This document shows, piece after piece, positions 32,384-41,746 of a DNA stretch of 64,000 bases. The DNA comes from Escherichia coli. Its GTDB lineage: Bacteria > Pseudomonadota > Gammaproteobacteria > Enterobacterales > Enterobacteriaceae. The translations under genes and the position numbers were made by a program. The first letter of the stretch is position 1; every line of letters starts with the position of its first letter. Under the pieces are notes generated by a model, which made no database searches, had not been told where the DNA came from, and worked only from the letters and a program-made list of their open reading frames with translations. Location of the stretch: assembly GCF_003334405.1 (NCBI RefSeq), contig NZ_QOWM01000005.1; one strand, given 5' to 3'.

Positions 32384-33171
32384 ATGCAAACCATCACCAT
32401 CGCCCCACCCAAGCGCAGCTGGTTCTCGCTTCTGAGCTGGGCCGTTGTACTCGCCGTGTTGGTCGTCTCGTGGCAGGGCGCGGAAATGGCCCCGCTTACG
32501 CTGATCAAAGACGGCGGCAACATGGCGACGTTCGCCGCCGACTTCTTCCCGCCCGATTTCAGCCAGTGGCAGGATTACCTCACCGAAATGGCCGTCACGC
32601 TGCAAATCGCCGTCTGGGGCACCGCGCTGGCGGTGGTTCTCTCCATCCCCTTTGGCCTGATGAGCGCCGAAAACCTGGTGCCGTGGTGGGTTTACCAGCC
32701 CGTTCGCCGCCTGATGGACGCCTGCCGCGCCATTAACGAAATGGTCTTCGCCATGCTGTTCGTGGTCGCCGTCGGCCTCGGCCCGTTCGCTGGCGTGCTG
32801 GCGTGCTGGCGCTGTTTATCCACACCACCGGCGTGCTCTCCAAGCTGCTTTCCGAAGCGGTGGAAGCGATTGAACCCGGCCCGGTGGAAGGCATTCGCGC
32901 CACCGGTGCCAACAAGCTCGAAGAGATCCTCTACGGCGTGCTGCCACAGGTGATGCCACTGCTGATCTCCTACTCCCTCTATCGCTTCGAATCCAACGTC
33001 CGCTCGGCGACCGTCGTCGGCATGGTCGGCGCAGGCGGGATCGGCGTCACCCTGTGGGAAGCGATTCGCGGTTTCCAGTTCCAACAAACCTGCGCCCTGA
33101 TGGTGCTTATCATCGTCACGGTCAGCCTGCTGGATTTCCTCTCTCAACGGTTGCGTAAGCACTTTATCTGA
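32384..33171 (+). pseudogene. phnE: phnE, phosphonate ABC transporter permease, inactivated by a frameshift (K-12 cryptic allele)
   Basis: N-terminal part [19 protein letters not shown]... is in frame with ATG 32384 and stops at 32953; the C-terminal permease portion continues in another frame to 33171; the frame switch coincides with a triple tandem 8-mer (gctggcgt gctggcgt gctggcgc) at 32789-32812. Confidence 0.88.
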
Positions 33172-33191
33172 TAAGCGAGGCATTGATATCT

Positions 33192-33917
33192 ATGCACTTG
33201 TCTACACATCCGACCAGCTACCCAACACGCTATCAAGAGATAGCCGCAAAACTTGAGCAGGAGCTTCGTCAACACTACCGCTGCGGCGACTATCTTCCCG
33301 CCGAGCAGCAACTGGCAGCGCGCTTTGAGGTGAATCGCCACACCCTGCGCCGCGCCATCGACCAACTGGTGGAAAAAGGCTGGGTACAGCGCCGTCAGGG
33401 CGTCGGCGTGCTGGTGCTGATGCGCCCGTTCGATTACCCGCTCAACGCCCAGGCGCGTTTTAGCCAGAATCTGCTGGATCAGGGCAGCCATCCCACCAGC
33501 GAAAAACTGCTTTCGGTATTGCGCCCCGCGTCCGGCCACGTCGCTGACGCACTGGGGATTACCGAGGGGGAGAACGTCATCCACCTGCGCACCCTGCGTC
33601 GTGTCAACGGCGTCGCGCTCTGTTTAATCGACCACTACTTCGCGGACCTCACCCTCTGGCCGACGCTGCAACGCTTCGACAGCGGCTCGCTGCACGATTT
33701 TCTGCGCGAGCAAACCGGAATTGCGCTGCGCCGCAGCCAGACGCGGATCAGCGCCCGCCGCGCCCAGGCCAAAGAGTGCCAGCGTCTTGAAATCCCGAAT
33801 ATGTCGCCGCTGCTGTGCGTGCGCACCCTTAACCACCGTGACGGTGAAAGCAGCCCGGCGGAGTACTCCGTCAGCCTGACGCGCGCCGACATGATTGAAT
33901 TCACTATGGAGCACTGA
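33192..33917 (+). CDS. phnF: GntR-family repressor PhnF (241 aa)
   Basis: N-terminal winged HTH plus UTRA domain; start at internal ATG 33192. Confidence 0.92.
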   Translation: MHLSTHPTSYPTRYQEIAAKLEQELRQHYRCGDYLPAEQQLAARFEVNRHTLRRAIDQLVEKGWVQRRQGVGVLVLMRPFDYPLNAQARFSQNLLDQGSHPTSEKLLSVLRPASGHVADALGITEGENVIHLRTLRRVNGVALCLIDHYFADLTLWPTLQRFDSGSLHDFLREQTGIALRRSQTRISARRAQAKECQRLEIPNMSPLLCVRTLNHRDGESSPAEYSVSLTRADMIEFTMEH

Positions 33918-34370
33918 ATGCACGCAGATACCGCGACCCGCCAGCACTGGATGTCCGTGCTGGCGCACAGCCAACCGGCTGAACTGGCAGCACGCCTGAA
34001 CGCGCTAAACATCACCGCCGACTATGAGGTGATCCGCGCCGCTGAAACTGGCCTGGTACAGATTCAGGCGCGGATGGGCGGCACCGGCGAACGTTTTTTT
34101 GCCGGCGACGCCACGCTGACCCGCGCCGCCGTGCGCCTGACTGACGGCACGCTCGGCTACAGCTGGGTGCAGGGGCGTGATAAACAGCACGCCGAACGCT
34201 GCGCGCTGATTGACGCGCTGATGCAGCAATCTCGCCACTTTCAAAACTTATCAGAAACCCTTATTGCCCCGCTGGACGCTGACCGTATGGCACGCATTGC
34301 CGCACGCCAGGCCGAAGTGAACGCCAGCCGGGTCGACTTCTTTACGATGGTTCGCGGAGACAACGCATGA
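33918..34370 (+). CDS. phnG: C-P lyase core complex subunit PhnG (150 aa)
   Basis: Operon position and length; start directly abuts the phnF stop. Confidence 0.93.
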
Positions 34371-34951
34371 CCCTGGAAACCGCTTTTATGCTTCCCGTGC
34401 AGGATGCCCAGCACAGTTTTCGTCGCCTGTTAAAGGCCATGAGCGAGCCGGGCGTGATTGTCGCCCTGCATCAGCTCAAACGCGGCTGGCAACCGCTGAA
34501 TATCGCCACCACCAGCGTGCTGCTGACGCTGGCCGATAACGACACGCCGGTGTGGCTTTCTACCCCATTAAATAACGATATCGTCAACCAGAGCCTGCGT
34601 TTTCATACCAACGCGCCGCTGGTCAGCCAGCCGGAACAGGCGACCTTCGCGGTGACGGATGAGGCGATTTCCAGCGAACAGCTCAACGCCCTTTCCACCG
34701 GCACCGCCGTTGCGCCGGAAGCGGGTGCGACGCTGATTTTACAGGTCGCCAGCCTGAGCGGCGGACGCATGTTGCGCCTTACTGGTGCGGGTATTGCCGA
34801 AGAACGAATGATCGCTCCGCAGCTGCCGGAGTGCATTCTGCACGAACTCACCGAGCGCCCGCATCCGTTCCCGCTCGGCATCGACCTGATCCTGACCTGT
34901 GGCGAGCGCCTGCTGGCTATTCCGCGAACCACTCATGTGGAGGTGTGCTGA
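34367..34951 (+). CDS. phnH: C-P lyase core complex subunit PhnH (194 aa)
   Basis: Operon position and length; overlaps the phnG stop by 4 bp. Confidence 0.93.
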
Positions 34952-36015
34952 TGTACGTTGCCGTGAAAGGGGGCGAGAAGGCGATCGACGCCGCCCACGC
35001 CCTGCAAGAGAGCCGACGCCGAGGCGATACCGATTTGCCCGAACTGAGCGTCGCCCAGATTGAACAGCAGCTTAACCTCGCGGTAGATCGCGTGATGACC
35101 GAAGGCGGCATTGCCGACCGCGAACTGGCGGCGCTGGCGCTGAAACAGGCCAGCGGCGATAACGTTGAAGCGATTTTCCTGCTGCGCGCCTACCGCACCA
35201 CGTTGGCGAAGCTGGCGGTAAGCGAGCCGCTCGACACCACCGGGATGCGTCTCGAACGCCGTATCTCCGCCGTTTATAAAGACATTCCCGGCGGCCAGCT
35301 GCTTGGCCCAACCTACGACTACACCCATCGCCTGCTCGATTTTACCCTGCTGGCAAACGGCGAAGCGCCGACGCTGACCACCGCCGACAGCGAACAGCAG
35401 CCGTCGCCGCACGTTTTCAGCCTGCTGGCGCGTCAGGGGCTGGCGAAGTTTGAAGAGGATAGCGGCGCACAGCCGGATGACATCACCCGCACGCCGCCGG
35501 TTTACCCCTGCTCACGCTCCTCCCGTTTGCAGCAGTTGATGCGCGGCGACGAAGGCTATTTGCTGGCGCTGGCCTACTCCACCCAACGCGGTTACGGGCG
35601 CAATCACCCGTTCGCAGGCGAGATCCGCAGCGGCTATATCGACGTGTCGATTGTGCCGGAAGAGCTGGGATTTGCGGTGAACGTCGGCGAACTGCTGATG
35701 ACTGAGTGTGAAATGGTTAACGGTTTTATCGACCCGCCGGGTGAGCCGCCGCACTTCACGCGCGGCTACGGGCTGGTGTTCGGCATGAGCGAGCGCAAAG
35801 CGATGGCGATGGCGCTGGTCGACCGCGCTCTGCAAGCCCCGGAGTACGGCGAGCACGCGACAGGCCCGGCGCAGGATGAAGAGTTCGTGCTGGCACATGC
35901 CGACAACGTCGAAGCCGCAGGCTTTGTCTCACACCTCAAACTCCCCCACTACGTCGATTTCCAGGCCGAACTGGAGCTACTCAAACGTCTGCAACAGGAG
36001 CAGAACCATGGCTAA
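34951..36015 (+). CDS. phnI: C-P lyase subunit PhnI, nucleosidase/ribosyl-transfer step (354 aa)
   Basis: Translation [26 protein letters not shown]...; start ATG 34951 shares a base with the phnH stop codon; the ORF-track start at 34831 is an extension. Confidence 0.92.
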   Translation: MYVAVKGGEKAIDAAHALQESRRRGDTDLPELSVAQIEQQLNLAVDRVMTEGGIADRELAALALKQASGDNVEAIFLLRAYRTTLAKLAVSEPLDTTGMRLERRISAVYKDIPGGQLLGPTYDYTHRLLDFTLLANGEAPTLTTADSEQQPSPHVFSLLARQGLAKFEEDSGAQPDDITRTPPVYPCSRSSRLQQLMRGDEGYLLALAYSTQRGYGRNHPFAGEIRSGYIDVSIVPEELGFAVNVGELLMTECEMVNGFIDPPGEPPHFTRGYGLVFGMSERKAMAMALVDRALQAPEYGEHATGPAQDEEFVLAHADNVEAAGFVSHLKLPHYVDFQAELELLKRLQQEQNHG

Positions 36016-36853
36016 TCTGAGCGGCTACAACTTTGCCTACCTCGACGAGCAGACCAAACGCATGATCCGCCGCGCCATCTTAAAAGCGGTGGCGATCCCC
36101 GGTTATCAGGTGCCGTTTGGCGGGCGCGAGATGCCGATGCCGTACGGCTGGGGAACCGGCGGCATTCAGCTTACCGCCAGCGTGATTGGCGAAAGCGACG
36201 TGCTGAAGGTGATTGACCAGGGCGCGGATGACACCACCAACGCCGTGTCGATTCGCAACTTCTTCAAGCGCGTGACCGGGGTAAACACCACGGAACGTAC
36301 GGACGATGCGACGGTTATCCAGACGCGTCACCGCATCCCCGAAACGCCGCTGACCGAAGATCAGATAATTATCTTCCAGGTGCCAATCCCCGAGCCGCTG
36401 CGCTTTATCGAGCCGCGCGAAACGGAAACCCGCACCATGCACGCGCTGGAAGAGTACGGCGTGATGCAGGTGAAACTGTATGAAGATATCGCCCGCTTCG
36501 GTCATATCGCCACCACCTACGCCTATCCGGTGAAGGTAAATGGGCGCTACGTGATGGACCCGTCGCCGATCCCGAAATTCGATAACCCAAAAATGGACAT
36601 GATGCCCGCCCTGCAACTGTTCGGCGCGGGGCGCGAGAAGCGCATCTATGCGGTGCCGCCGTTTACCCGCGTGGAAAGTCTCGATTTCGACGATCACCCG
36701 TTCACCGTTCAGCAGTGGGATGAGCCATGCGCCATCTGCGGATCGACCCACAGCTATCTTGATGAAGTGGTGCTGGATGACGCCGGAAACCGCATGTTTG
36801 TCTGCTCCGATACCGATTATTGCCGCCAACAGAGCGAGGCAAAAAACCAATGA
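36008..36853 (+). CDS. phnJ: C-P lyase catalytic subunit PhnJ, radical-SAM-like enzyme (281 aa)
   Basis: Translation MANLSGYNFAYLDEQTKRMIRRAILKAVAIPGYQVPFGG...; four-Cys cluster CAICGSTHSYLDEVVLDDAGNRMFVCSDTDYC near the C-terminus. Confidence 0.93.
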   Translation: MANLSGYNFAYLDEQTKRMIRRAILKAVAIPGYQVPFGGREMPMPYGWGTGGIQLTASVIGESDVLKVIDQGADDTTNAVSIRNFFKRVTGVNTTERTDDATVIQTRHRIPETPLTEDQIIIFQVPIPEPLRFIEPRETETRTMHALEEYGVMQVKLYEDIARFGHIATTYAYPVKVNGRYVMDPSPIPKFDNPKMDMMPALQLFGAGREKRIYAVPPFTRVESLDFDDHPFTVQQWDEPCAICGSTHSYLDEVVLDDAGNRMFVCSDTDYCRQQSEAKNQ

Positions 36854-37608
36854 ATCAACCGTTACTTTCGGTCAATAACCTGACCCACCTTTACGCGCCG
36901 GGCAAAGGCTTTAGCGATGTCTCTTTTGATTTATGGCCGGGGGAAGTGCTGGGCATTGTCGGGGAATCCGGCTCCGGGAAGACCACGCTGCTGAAGTCGA
37001 TCTCCGCGCGCCTGACGCCGCAGCAGGGGGAAATTCACTACGAGAACCGTTCGCTGTATGCAATGAGCGAGGCCGACCGCCGTCGCCTGCTGCGTACCGA
37101 ATGGGGCGTGGTGCATCAGCATCCACTCGACGGCCTGCGCCGCCAGGTGTCGGCGGGCGGCAATATCGGCGAGCGGCTGATGGCGACCGGGGCACGTCAT
37201 TACGGCGATATTCGTGCCACCGCGCAGAAGTGGCTGGAAGAGGTGGAGATTCCCGCCAACCGGATCGACGACCTGCCGACCACCTTTTCCGGCGGTATGC
37301 AGCAGCGTTTGCAGATTGCCCGCAACCTGGTGACGCATCCGAAGCTGGTGTTTATGGATGAACCGACCGGCGGGCTGGATGTGTCGGTGCAGGCCCGCCT
37401 GCTCGACCTGCTGCGCGGCCTGGTGGTGGAGCTGAACCTCGCGGTGGTGATTGTCACCCATGATTTAGGCGTCGCCCGCCTGCTGGCGGACCGTTTGCTG
37501 GTGATGAAGCAGGGGCAAGTGGTGGAGAGTGGGTTAACCGACCGCGTGCTCGACGACCCGCATCATCCGTATACACAGCTGCTGGTGTCATCGGTTTTGC
37601 AGAATTGA
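36850..37608 (+). CDS. phnK: C-P lyase associated ATP-binding protein PhnK (252 aa)
   Basis: Walker [10 protein letters not shown], signature FSGGMQQR; start [15 protein letters not shown] overlaps the phnJ stop. Confidence 0.93.
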
Positions 37609-37610
37609 GC

Positions 37611-37700
<90 letters not shown>

Positions 37701-37718
37701 CGAACCACGAGGCGAAAA

Positions 37719-38399
37719 ATGATTAACGTACAAAACGTCAGTAAAACCTTCATCCTGCACCAGCAAAACGGCGTGCGCCTGCCCGTCCTCAATCGCGCCT
37801 CGCTCACCGTCAACGCGGGCGAATGCGTGGTGCTCCACGGCCATTCCGGCAGCGGCAAATCAACTCTGCTACGCTCGCTGTACGCCAACTATCTGCCCGA
37901 CGAAGGTCAAATCCAGATCAAACACGGTGACGAGTGGGTAGACCTGGTCACCGCGCCAGCGCGCAAAGTGGTGGAAATCCGCAAAACCACCGTCGGCTGG
38001 GTGAGCCAGTTTCTGCGCGTCATCCCGCGTATCTCAGCACTGGAAGTGGTGATGCAGCCGCTGCTCGATACCGGCGTTCCGCGTGAAGCCTGCGCCGCTA
38101 AAGCCGCGCGTCTTCTCACCCGCCTGAACGTGCCGGAACGCCTGTGGCACCTGGCACCATCGACATTTTCCGGTGGCGAACAGCAGCGCGTCAACATCGC
38201 CCGCGGCTTTATCGTCGACTACCCCATTCTGCTGCTTGACGAACCTACCGCCTCGCTGGACGCCAAAAACAGCGCCGCGGTGGTGGAACTGATTCGCGAA
38301 GCCAAAACCCGTGGCGCAGCCATCGTAGGCATCTTCCATGACGAAGCTGTACGTAATGACGTCGCCGACCGCCTGCACCCAATGGGAGCCTCTTCATGA
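37719..38399 (+). CDS. phnL: C-P lyase associated ATP-binding protein PhnL (226 aa)
   Basis: Translation [21 protein letters not shown]..., Walker [10 protein letters not shown]; the ORF-track start at 37605 runs through the REP element. Confidence 0.93.
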
Positions 38400-39532
38400 T
38401 TATCAATAACGTTAAGCTGGTGCTGGAAAACGAGGTGGTAAGCGGTTCGCTGGAGGTGCAGAACGGCGAAATCCGCGCCTTTGCCGAAAGCCAGAGCCGC
38501 CTGCCGGAGGCGATGGACGGCGAAGGCGGCTGGCTGCTGCCGGGGCTGATTGAGCTGCATACCGATAATCTGGATAAATTCTTCACCCCGCGCCCGAAAG
38601 TTGACTGGCCTGCCCACTCGGCGATGAGCAGCCACGACGCGCTGATGGTGGCGAGCGGCATCACCACCGTACTGGATGCCGTGGCAATTGGCGACGTGCG
38701 CGACGGCGGCGATCGGCTGGAGAATCTGGAGAAGATGATCAACGCCATCGAAGAGACGCAGAAACGCGGCGTCAACCGCGCCGAGCACCGTCTGCATCTG
38801 CGCTGCGAACTGCCGCATCACACCACGCTGCCGCTGTTTGAAAAACTGGTGCAGCGCGAGCCGGTGACGCTGGTGTCGCTGATGGACCACTCGCCGGGCC
38901 AGCGCCAGTTCGCCAACCGCGAGAAGTATCGCGAATATTATCAGGGCAAATACTCCCTCACTGATGCGCAGATGCAGCAGTACGAAGAAGAGCAACTGGC
39001 GCTCGCCGCACGCTGGTCGCAGCCGAATCGCGAATCCATCGCCGCCCTGTGCCGCGCGCGAAAAATTGCGCTTGCCAGCCACGATGACGCCACCCACGCC
39101 CACGTTGCTGAATCTCACCAGCTTGGCAGCGTGATCGCCGAATTTCCCACCACGTTCGAAGCGGCGGAAGCCTCGCGCAAGCATGGCATGAACGTGCTGA
39201 TGGGCGCGCCGAATATTGTGCGCGGCGGCTCGCACTCCGGCAACGTGGCGGCCAGTGAACTGGCGCAGCTTGGCCTGCTGGATATCCTCTCTTCCGACTA
39301 CTACCCCGCCAGCCTGCTCGATGCGGCATTTCGCGTCGCCGATGACCAGAGCAACCGCTTTACGCTGCCGCAGGCGGTGAAGCTGGTGACTAAAAATCCA
39401 GCGCAGGCGCTTAATCTCCAGGATCGCGGGGTGATTGGCGAGGGCAAACGCGCCGACCTGGTGCTGGCGCATCGCAAGGACAATCATATTCATATCGACC
39501 ACGTCTGGCGTCAGGGTAAAAGGGTGTTCTGA
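38396..39532 (+). CDS. phnM: PhnM, amidohydrolase-family pyrophosphohydrolase of the C-P lyase pathway (378 aa)
   Basis: Amidohydrolase-type metal-binding motifs (ELHTDN); operon position. Confidence 0.93.
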
Positions 39533-40089
39533 TGATGGGAAAACTGATTTGGTTAATGGGGCCGTCCGGCTCCGGGAAAGACAGCCTGCTGGCGGAACTC
39601 CGCCTGCGGGAACAAACTCAGTTACTGGTGGCGCATCGCTACATCACGCGCGATGCCAGCGCCGGAAGTGAAAACCATATCGCCCTGAGCGAGCAGGAGT
39701 TTTTTACCCGCGCGGGGCAAAATCTGTTGGCCTTAAGCTGGCACGCTAACGGTCTGTATTATGGCGTCGGCGTCGAGATTGATCTCTGGCTGCACGCCGG
39801 ATTCGACGTGCTGGTCAACGGCTCACGCGCCCATCTGCCGCAGGCGCGGGCGCGCTATCAATCGGCGCTGCTGCCCGTCTGTTTACAGGTTTCGCCGGAG
39901 ATCCTCCGCCAGCGCCTGGAAAACCGTGGCCGTGAAAACGCCAGTGAAATTAACGCCCGCCTGGCGCGCGCCGCCCGCTATACTCCACAGGATTGCCATA
40001 CGCTCAACAATGACGGCAGCCTGCGCCAGTCGGTCGACACGCTGCTGACGCTGATCCATCAGAAGGAGAAACACCATGCCTGCTTGTGA
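39532..40089 (+). CDS. phnN: Ribose 1,5-bisphosphate phosphokinase PhnN (185 aa)
   Basis: P-loop GPSGSGKDS; start ATG shares one base with the phnM stop. Confidence 0.93.
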
Positions 40090-40510
40090 GCTTCGCCCGG
40101 CCACGCAGTACGACACCGACGCGGTTTACGCGCTGATTTGTGAGCTAAAACAGGCGGAGTTTGACCACCACGCGTTTCGCGTGGGTTTTAACGCCAATCT
40201 GCGCGACCCAAACATGCGCTACCATCTGGCGCTGCTTGATGGCGAAGTTGTCGGCATGATCGGCCTGCATTTGCAGTTTCATCTGCATCATGTCAACTGG
40301 ATCGGCGAAATTCAGGAGTTGGTGGTAATGCCGCAGGCGCGCGGTCTGAACGTCGGCAGTAAGTTACTGGCGTGGGCAGAAGAAGAAGCCCGCCAGGCCG
40401 GGGCCGAAATGACCGAACTTTCGACCAACGTGAAGCGCCACGACGCGCACCGTTTCTATCTGCGCGAAGGCTACGAGCAGAGCCACTTCCGCTTCACCAA
40501 GGCGCTGTAA
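40076..40510 (+). CDS. phnO: Aminoalkylphosphonate N-acetyltransferase PhnO (144 aa, GNAT)
   Basis: GNAT fold; overlaps the phnN end by 14 bp. Confidence 0.93.
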
Positions 40511-40511
40511 C

Positions 40512-41270
40512 ATGAGCCTGACCCTCACGCTCACCGGCACCGGCGGCGCACAGGGCGTTCCGGCATGGGGCTGCGAGTGTGCGGCCTGCGCCAGAGCGCG
40601 GCGCTCGCCGCAGTATCGCCGCCAACCGTGCAGCGGCGTAGTGAAGTTTAACGACGCAATCACCCTGATCGACGCCGGGCTGCACGATCTCGCCGATCGC
40701 TGGTCGCCCGGATCGTTCCAGCAGTTTTTGCTGACGCATTATCATATGGATCACGTCCAGGGGCTGTTTCCGCTGCGCTGGGGCGTTGGCGATCCGATCC
40801 CGGTTTACGGCCCGCCGGATGAACAGGGCTGCGACGATCTGTTTAAACATCCGGGCCTGCTTGATTTCAGCCACACGGTGGAACCGTTTGTGGTGTTTGA
40901 TTTGCAGGGGTTACAGGTCACGCCCCTGCCGCTCAACCACTCAAAACTGACCTTCGGTTATCTGCTGGAAACGGCACACAGCCGGGTGGCGTGGCTGTCT
41001 GACACCGCAGGCTTGCCGGAAAAAACGCTGAAATTTTTACGCAATAATCAGCCGCAGGTAATGGTGATGGATTGCAGTCACCCGCCGCGCGCGGATGCAC
41101 CGCGTAATCACTGTGATTTAAATACCGTGCTTGCGCTGAATCAGGTTATCCGCTCGCCACGGGTGATTCTGACCCATATCAGCCACCAGTTTGATGCGTG
41201 GCTGATGGAAAACGCACTACCGTCAGGGTTTGAGGTGGGGTTTGATGGGATGGAGATTGGGGTGGCGTGA
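40512..41270 (+). CDS. phnP: PhnP, metallo-beta-lactamase-fold cyclic phosphodiesterase (252 aa)
   Basis: HxHxDH motif (THYHMDH); last gene of the operon. Confidence 0.93.
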
Positions 41271-41416: not shown

Positions 41417-41746
41417 TCATCGCCCATACTCATCTTCCATTCTCCGCTCTTCATCCTCCAGTTGCCGACGCTCCTGATCAAGCTGGCGCTGGCGATCGTC
41501 CAGCTGCCTGCGGCGATCTTCAAACTGGCGGCGGCGGTCGTCATATTGTCTGCGCCGATCGTCGCTCACTTCACGCTGCCAGCCGTCGTCGCGCGAATCT
41601 TCATAGTCTCGCCCACGGTCAGGGTTATAAGCGTCATTAATCGCCTGCTGAATATTGCCAATGGTGTCGTCGATAATATCGGCCTGGGCCGGAACGGTGG
41701 ACAGCGTGAGCAGGGTGAATAAAAGAAATAGCGGAAAGCGTTTCAT
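41417..41746 (-). CDS. yjdP: Secreted low-complexity protein YjdP (109 aa) with charged R/Q/D/E repeats
   Basis: Signal peptide MKRFPLFLLFTLLTLSTVPAQA followed by repeats of the form DDRRRQ(Y/F/L); function unknown. Confidence 0.8.
   Translation of the reverse strand: MKRFPLFLLFTLLTLSTVPAQADIIDDTIGNIQQAINDAYNPDRGRDYEDSRDDGWQREVSDDRRRQYDDRRRQFEDRRRQLDDRQRQLDQERRQLEDEERRMEDEYGR

Follow-up and report, generated by a model that had tools for sequence, protein, structure and literature searches.

The phn operon and the frame break in phnE

The window, by which we mean the whole 64 kb stretch of Escherichia coli DNA that was analysed, carries the complete 14-gene phnCDEFGHIJKLMNOP operon, in order, at 30449-41270, and the arrangement is syntenic with that of MG1655. 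The relevant features are listed below by window position.

30449-31237, + strand: phnC, ATP-binding subunit; intact, upstream of the frameshift
31262-32278, + strand: phnD, periplasmic binding protein; intact, upstream of the frameshift
32384-32953, + strand: 5' part of phnE; residues 1-140 are genuine PhnE, followed by a 49-aa out-of-frame tail with its stop codon at 32951-32953
32789-32812, + strand: tandem octamer array, the slippage site; GCTGGCGT twice and GCTGGCGC once, three copies in all, at nt 406-429 of the phnE ORF
32797-33171, + strand: 3' part of phnE in the post-array frame; PhnE residues 136-259, TIGR01097 positions 131-251
33192-41270, + strand: phnF to phnP, eleven genes; the regulator, the C-P lyase genes and accessory genes, all intact

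The 13 phn genes besides phnE are full length and have 100% amino-acid identity to their counterparts in ETEC1732, whose phnE has two octamer copies. Because these 13 genes are intact, phnE is the only lesion in the operon. A Pho-box scan with CTGTCATNNNNCTGTCAT, allowing up to three mismatches, found nothing upstream of phnC and gave only chance-level matches elsewhere. The region upstream of phnC reads ctgttagtcacttttaat at 30373-30390, which may resemble the published phnC Pho box. The spacer between phnD and phnE is occupied by a REP/BIME-like palindromic element (32290-32375). The MG1655 annotation begins phnE at an upstream ATG within this element (window position 32333), but PGAP and the alignment to TIGR01097 favour the ATG at 32384.

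From the ATG at 32384, the N-terminal frame of phnE belongs to an ORF spanning 32321-32953, and the C-terminal frame corresponds to a mechanical ORF at 32803-33171. With intact PhnE as the query, tblastn aligns amino acids 1-142 to 32384-32809 and amino acids 136-259 to 32797-33168, in a different frame. The two halves meet at the array, and the frame break therefore maps inside it. The first-pass annotation had put the break at this point, with a stop at 32953 and a C-terminal part running to 33171; the ORFs and tblastn both bear this out, and tblastn places the break within the array and not elsewhere. The NCBIfam model TIGR01097 (PhnE, equivalog) matches the native N-terminal product over residues 16-140 (profile positions 8-133, 127.7 bits) and the C-terminal ORF over profile positions 131-251 (176.5 bits). 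Both scores are under the curated cut-off of 216.7 bits, and the matches of the two fragments meet at profile positions 131-133.

Deletion of one 8 bp unit in silico gives a 780 nt ORF encoding 259 aa, which is the single permease ORF that had been predicted from the sequence. Loss of two units or gain of one leaves phnE out of frame, and gain of two units puts it in frame with eight extra residues. The repaired 259-aa protein scores 311.5 bits against TIGR01097 (profile positions 8-251). The alignment to phnE of E. coli B that had been proposed as a check was run: BL21(DE3) has two octamer copies and a phnE annotated as intact, and the repaired protein is identical to its functional PhnE (WP_001193500.1), the two genes differing at 16 nucleotides, all synonymous. 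Pfam BPD_transp_1 (PF00528) covers residues 88-258 of the repaired protein, so the frameshift removes about two thirds of the permease domain. The lost C-terminal part presumably includes the cytoplasmic EAA-type loop, which docks the ATPase, and the last membrane helices.

There is a GTG at 32803, inside the array, which opens the mechanical ORF covering the whole C-terminal part, and both halves of phnE retain a strong TIGR01097 family signal. The three-copy gene might on these grounds still be expressed, through ribosomal frameshifting or through separate translation of its two halves, and the allele would then not be truly off. We regard this as highly improbable, as the split falls within the BPD_transp_1 domain and K-12 with the three-copy allele is reported neither to import phosphonates nor to grow on them before 8 bp are lost (PMC6469041, PMC3463581).

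The letters at 32789-32812 are GCTGGCGTGCTGGCGTGCTGGCGC, that is, GCTGGCGT GCTGGCGT GCTGGCGC. Tandem Repeats Finder reports the array at 32789-32811 with period 8, 2.9 copies and 100% matches, in agreement with the triple tandem 8-mer first noted there. It is the sole period-8 run with at least 15 matched bases in the 64 kb window, and in 30 first-order Markov simulations of the window there were no period-8 runs of at least 15, the longest being 10. Period-8 runs of the size expected of two copies (at least 7 matched bases) are at chance level, with 4 observed versus 3.9 expected. As two-copy runs occur at chance level and a three-copy run is absent from the simulations, the two-copy state is ordinary coding sequence, and what departs from chance is the third copy. 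Slippage assisted by a hairpin was considered and rejected, because the array and its flanks fold no better than shuffled sequences (z = +1.5). The likely mechanism is simple mispairing between direct repeats, as stated in PMC4759930.

The phn(EcoK) allele and the relatives of the window

MG1655 has the same three-copy array, matches the array and 24 nt of its left flank perfectly, and has phnE (b4583) annotated as a pseudogene. Phosphonate transport in K-12 is cryptic through an 8 bp insertion in phnE and revertants arise by slippage; one such revertant lost 5'-GCTGGCGT at position 407-414 of the phnE ORF (PMC6469041), a deletion with which the array unit and its position in the window agree. 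The 8 bp deletion is reported to occur by slippage between direct repeats at high frequency (PMC4759930), and the phn(EcoK) allele is defined by three, not two, tandem copies of the 8 bp unit (PMC7566553). These three papers and PMC3463581 cite Makino et al. 1991 (J Bacteriol 173:2665) and/or Iqbal et al. 2004 (J Bacteriol 186:6118) which, as far as the citing papers convey, describe the cryptic allele; the title of the latter, as cited, indicates high-frequency switching in both directions.

In the window, the array lies at the same place in the operon, is present in three copies and causes a frameshift that is repaired by loss of 8 bp. Gene, octamer (GCTGGCGT), copy number, ORF position, frameshift and repair are all as in phn(EcoK) of K-12. 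The three-copy array is thus the known phn(EcoK) cryptic allele, correctly rediscovered here from the sequence but already described since 1991 and 2004. The first-pass annotation had called it the slipped-strand switch of the cryptic phn operon, and this is upheld by the 8 bp lesion, slippage loss and revertants described in the four papers, as well as by a RefSeq genome of a two-copy MG1655 derivative, MG1655 itself having three copies and a pseudogene. The window allele differs from phn(EcoK) of MG1655 in one synonymous SNP in phnE and in being common to hundreds of natural isolates.

Outside two REP-type tandem arrays, the window and MG1655 differ at eight positions (seven SNPs and one 1 bp intergenic indel). 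These positions and the two arrays are as follows.

6763: SNP, intergenic
10180: 1 bp indel, intergenic
21948: SNP, basR
32874: SNP, phnE
37155: SNP, phnK
56039: SNP, mdtP
58245: SNP, fdhF
60130: SNP, gltP
29430-29809: REP/BIME-like tandem array with a 100 bp period between yjdM and yjdN; 3.8 copies, 97% identity (5.8 copies in MG1655)
59181-59668: REP-like tandem array with a 113 bp period between gltP and yjcO; 4.3 copies, 96% identity (5.3 copies in MG1655)

The phnE SNP at 32874 is synonymous, since the MG1655 revertant and the repaired window encode one protein accession. Judging from alignment overlaps, the yjdM-yjdN array has about 5.8 copies in ETEC1732 and about 4.8 in Z217-2. There is also a 21 bp tandem repeat at 41491-41563 (3.5 copies, 75% matches) in the yjdP region ('DDRRRQL repeat protein'), and yjdP of ETEC1732 is annotated with an internal stop. 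Over 28000-36000 the window is identical to N18-04097, a natural three-copy isolate whose annotation marks crfC/rdcA as frameshifted.

The phnE of K-12 derivatives is 99.9% identical to that of the window, and several natural isolates have 100% identity. The best 25 kb match to the window is NCTC9104, followed by pig and chicken isolates; clinical isolates also rank among the best matches. Judged by these comparisons, the window is a very close natural relative of K-12 that is distinct from MG1655. The array had also been read as the mark of a K-12-type genome. This stands in so far as the window is very close to K-12 and MG1655 has the same array, but the window is not MG1655 and the allele is found in about 1,000 genomes, mostly natural, so it marks a clade that includes K-12 and not K-12 itself.

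Copy number of the octamer across E. coli

The 2004 paper is said to have regarded the three-copy allele as peculiar to K-12. We surveyed 5,426 complete E. coli genomes, using a flank-neutral 31-mer to detect alleles with at least three copies. The results were as follows.

At least 3 copies: 1,014 records in 1,012 genomes (18.7%), from the flank-neutral 31-mer
2 copies: about 4,370 genomes, essentially all the remaining ones
3 copies: about 1,000 records, each with 99% identity or more to the 121 nt of window sequence
4 copies: 12 records, VR50 among them
7 copies: one genome, OkiPb01713
10 copies: one genome, 2013C-4974

No one-copy phnE alleles were found in the 5,426 genomes; apparent 100% one-copy matches were rejected, being two-piece joins on four-copy alleles. 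No alleles with 5, 6, 8 or 9 copies were seen among the matches listed, in which a five-copy allele with a divergent left flank could rank lower. In the retrieved loci the arrays lie at 631-690 in VR50 (4 copies), 631-720 in OkiPb01713 (7 copies) and 631-745 in 2013C-4974 (10 copies). As 4, 7 and 10 are all congruent to 1 modulo 3, none of these alleles is in frame; PGAP labels the 3-, 4-, 7- and 10-copy alleles 'frameshifted'.

All three-copy alleles are on a single haplotype, with at least 99% identity over 121 nt and over 787 nt. The roughly 1,000 three-copy, 12 four-copy and two longer alleles account for the 1,014 records, so the flank-neutral 31-mer finds no three-copy allele on any other haplotype in the 5,426 genomes. 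The 7- and 10-copy alleles are on a flank haplotype different from that of the window, which makes them independent expansions.

Some sequencing technologies make errors at short tandem repeats, and a real two-copy genome could have been misread or misassembled at the array. Nothing specific to this genome pointed to such an error. It is scarcely credible, because the same three copies appear in about 1,000 independently assembled complete genomes, the MG1655 reference included, and three copies have also been reported from Sanger and Illumina data (PMC6469041, PMC7566553).

From the 1,014 records with at least three copies we drew 60 at even spacing and sorted them by source label and strain name. 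Human, animal, food or environmental labels were found on 39 of the 60, 10 were recognisable laboratory K-12 derivatives and 11 were unclear; the 39 labels suggest that the 'K-12' allele is mainly natural. Five phnE matches, three of them with at least three octamer copies, are on records labelled as plasmid, which may be wrongly assigned replicons or pieces of chromosome carried by plasmids. A different phnE lesion is present in 2014C-3011, where an 82 bp deletion joins two CCCGTTCGC direct repeats (at about 590-610 of the locus). These repeats are equivalent to window positions 32700-32708 and 32782-32790, the second abutting the octamer array, and the lesion is another repeat-mediated frameshift in phnE.

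An exact 23-mer scan of one genome per species (GTDB) found 45 loci with perfect tandem arrays of GCTGGCGT, from 2.9 to 22.9 copies, in 45 unrelated and mostly GC-rich species such as Haematobacter and Sphingomonas. None of the matches in the species representatives was in Enterobacteriaceae and none was near a phnE homologue. As all these loci are away from phnE, the three-copy phnE array is not shared by the representatives of other species.

On the window haplotype, the two-copy allele is found in only five genomes. Four of these have an allele with 100% identity to the repaired window: ETEC1732/1734, from pig in Belgium, and Z217-2/-4, from a hospital in China. The fifth allele belongs to a Sao Paulo derivative of MG1655 and has 99.9% identity; partly on the basis of its origin, this strain is probably the revertant RI57 of PMC6469041. 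The next-best two-copy alleles are about 6 SNPs away (99.2% identity). Over their 40 kb flanks, ETEC1732 and Z217-2 have 99.8-99.96% identity to the window, which is as close as MG1655. The simplest reading of these sequences is that the third copy had one origin and spread clonally, with rare 3-to-2 reversions and occasional 3-to-4 gains, although the natural two-copy strains could in principle reflect ancestral retention or recombination instead of reversion.

A reversible switch or an inherited lesion

We consider it very probable that an 8 bp slipped-strand duplication in phnE abolishes the PhnCDE importer and makes an otherwise intact C-P lyase pathway cryptic, and that the pathway is regained when one unit is lost. 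The anatomy, the in-silico repair, the identity of the allele and the copy-number polymorphism were computed here, and the Phn-minus phenotype, slippage and rates are taken from the literature. The membrane permease of this phosphonate/phosphate ABC importer is encoded by phnE, and the functional allele has two tandem copies of GCTGGCGT encoding part of the sequence AGVLAL in a membrane segment. The third copy adds 8 bp and shifts the frame after residue 140, with a stop 49 codons on. The importer would be unable to form with the truncated permease and, as phosphonates cannot enter the cell without it, they would be kept out although the other phn genes are intact. Slippage can shorten the array from three units to two (ON), or lengthen it from two to three or from three to four (OFF). 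Because the lesion is a perfect tandem repeat, from which units can be lost or gained by replication slippage, it would act as a reversible, heritable on/off switch.

On the window haplotype there are about 1,000 three-copy and 12 four-copy records versus 4 natural two-copy genomes. The OFF form dominates, so that in nature the site looks closer to a lesion passed on stably than to a switch that flips rapidly. The main alternative is that phnE is a decaying pseudogene, in which a one-off 8 bp duplication was inherited by a large clade and there is no reversible switch in nature. The presence of about 1,000 three-copy records on a single haplotype, with no others found by the 31-mer, and of two copies in only 4 natural genomes of that haplotype, fits such a single origin with clonal inheritance. 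We nevertheless think decay unlikely. There are no secondary lesions in the window, where both halves of phnE and the other 13 phn genes are intact, and the phn genes within the retrieved 8 kb of N18-04097 are also intact. Copy number is still changing on the window haplotype and on another (4, 7 and 10 copies), and two-copy alleles are present in ETEC1732/1734, in the unrelated natural pair Z217-2/-4 and in the laboratory derivative of MG1655. Additionally, reversion in the laboratory is documented (PMC6469041, PMC4759930).

It is possible, and we put this forward only tentatively, that the three-copy OFF form is a naturally maintained state of a contingency locus, fixed in a large global clade with rare reversions and further expansions. 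Well-known contingency loci include the tetranucleotide repeats of lic and mod in Haemophilus influenzae and the pentanucleotide CTCTT of opa in Neisseria. As in these slipped-strand loci, phnE has an intragenic tandem repeat whose copy number sets the frame and whose gains and losses are heritable and reversible, and we found 2, 3 and 4 copies among near-identical strains of the window haplotype and 7 and 10 copies on another. In contrast with the tens of 1- to 5-mers typical of contingency loci, however, the phnE array is very short, with 2-3 copies of an 8-mer, and phnE is a nutrient-uptake gene rather than one for a surface antigen. The phnE population also differs in being dominated by two stable states, each tied to a haplotype background, and switching in nature is putative.

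Other strain-specific frameshifts and cryptic operons of K-12 include ilvG, rph-1, bgl and chb/cel. In these, as in phnE, an intact pathway is silenced by a single small lesion and is recoverable under selection. They are activated by point mutations, single-base changes or IS insertions, whereas phnE is activated by loss of a repeat unit; to our knowledge they have not been described as reversible in both directions.

In annotation, both phnE fragments are best recorded as a single frameshifted gene, and the strain is predicted to be phosphonate-negative yet readily revertible. This is relevant to phosphorus-source phenotypes and to experimental evolution under phosphate starvation, and possibly to studies of fosfomycin or glyphosate. 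Beyond the known lesion, these data make a modest addition: about 1,000 complete genomes, mostly wild, carry it and the allele is not K-12-specific. The wide spread of the lesion, together with the longer arrays, suggests that the locus may deserve a population-genetic look. The clade with the three-copy OFF form accounts for about 19% of complete genomes, most of them from humans, livestock or the environment. If the OFF state is indeed maintained, this would imply selection against PhnCDE import, for example through the cost of the importer or the uptake of toxic phosphonates, and would contradict the early view of the switch as peculiar to K-12.
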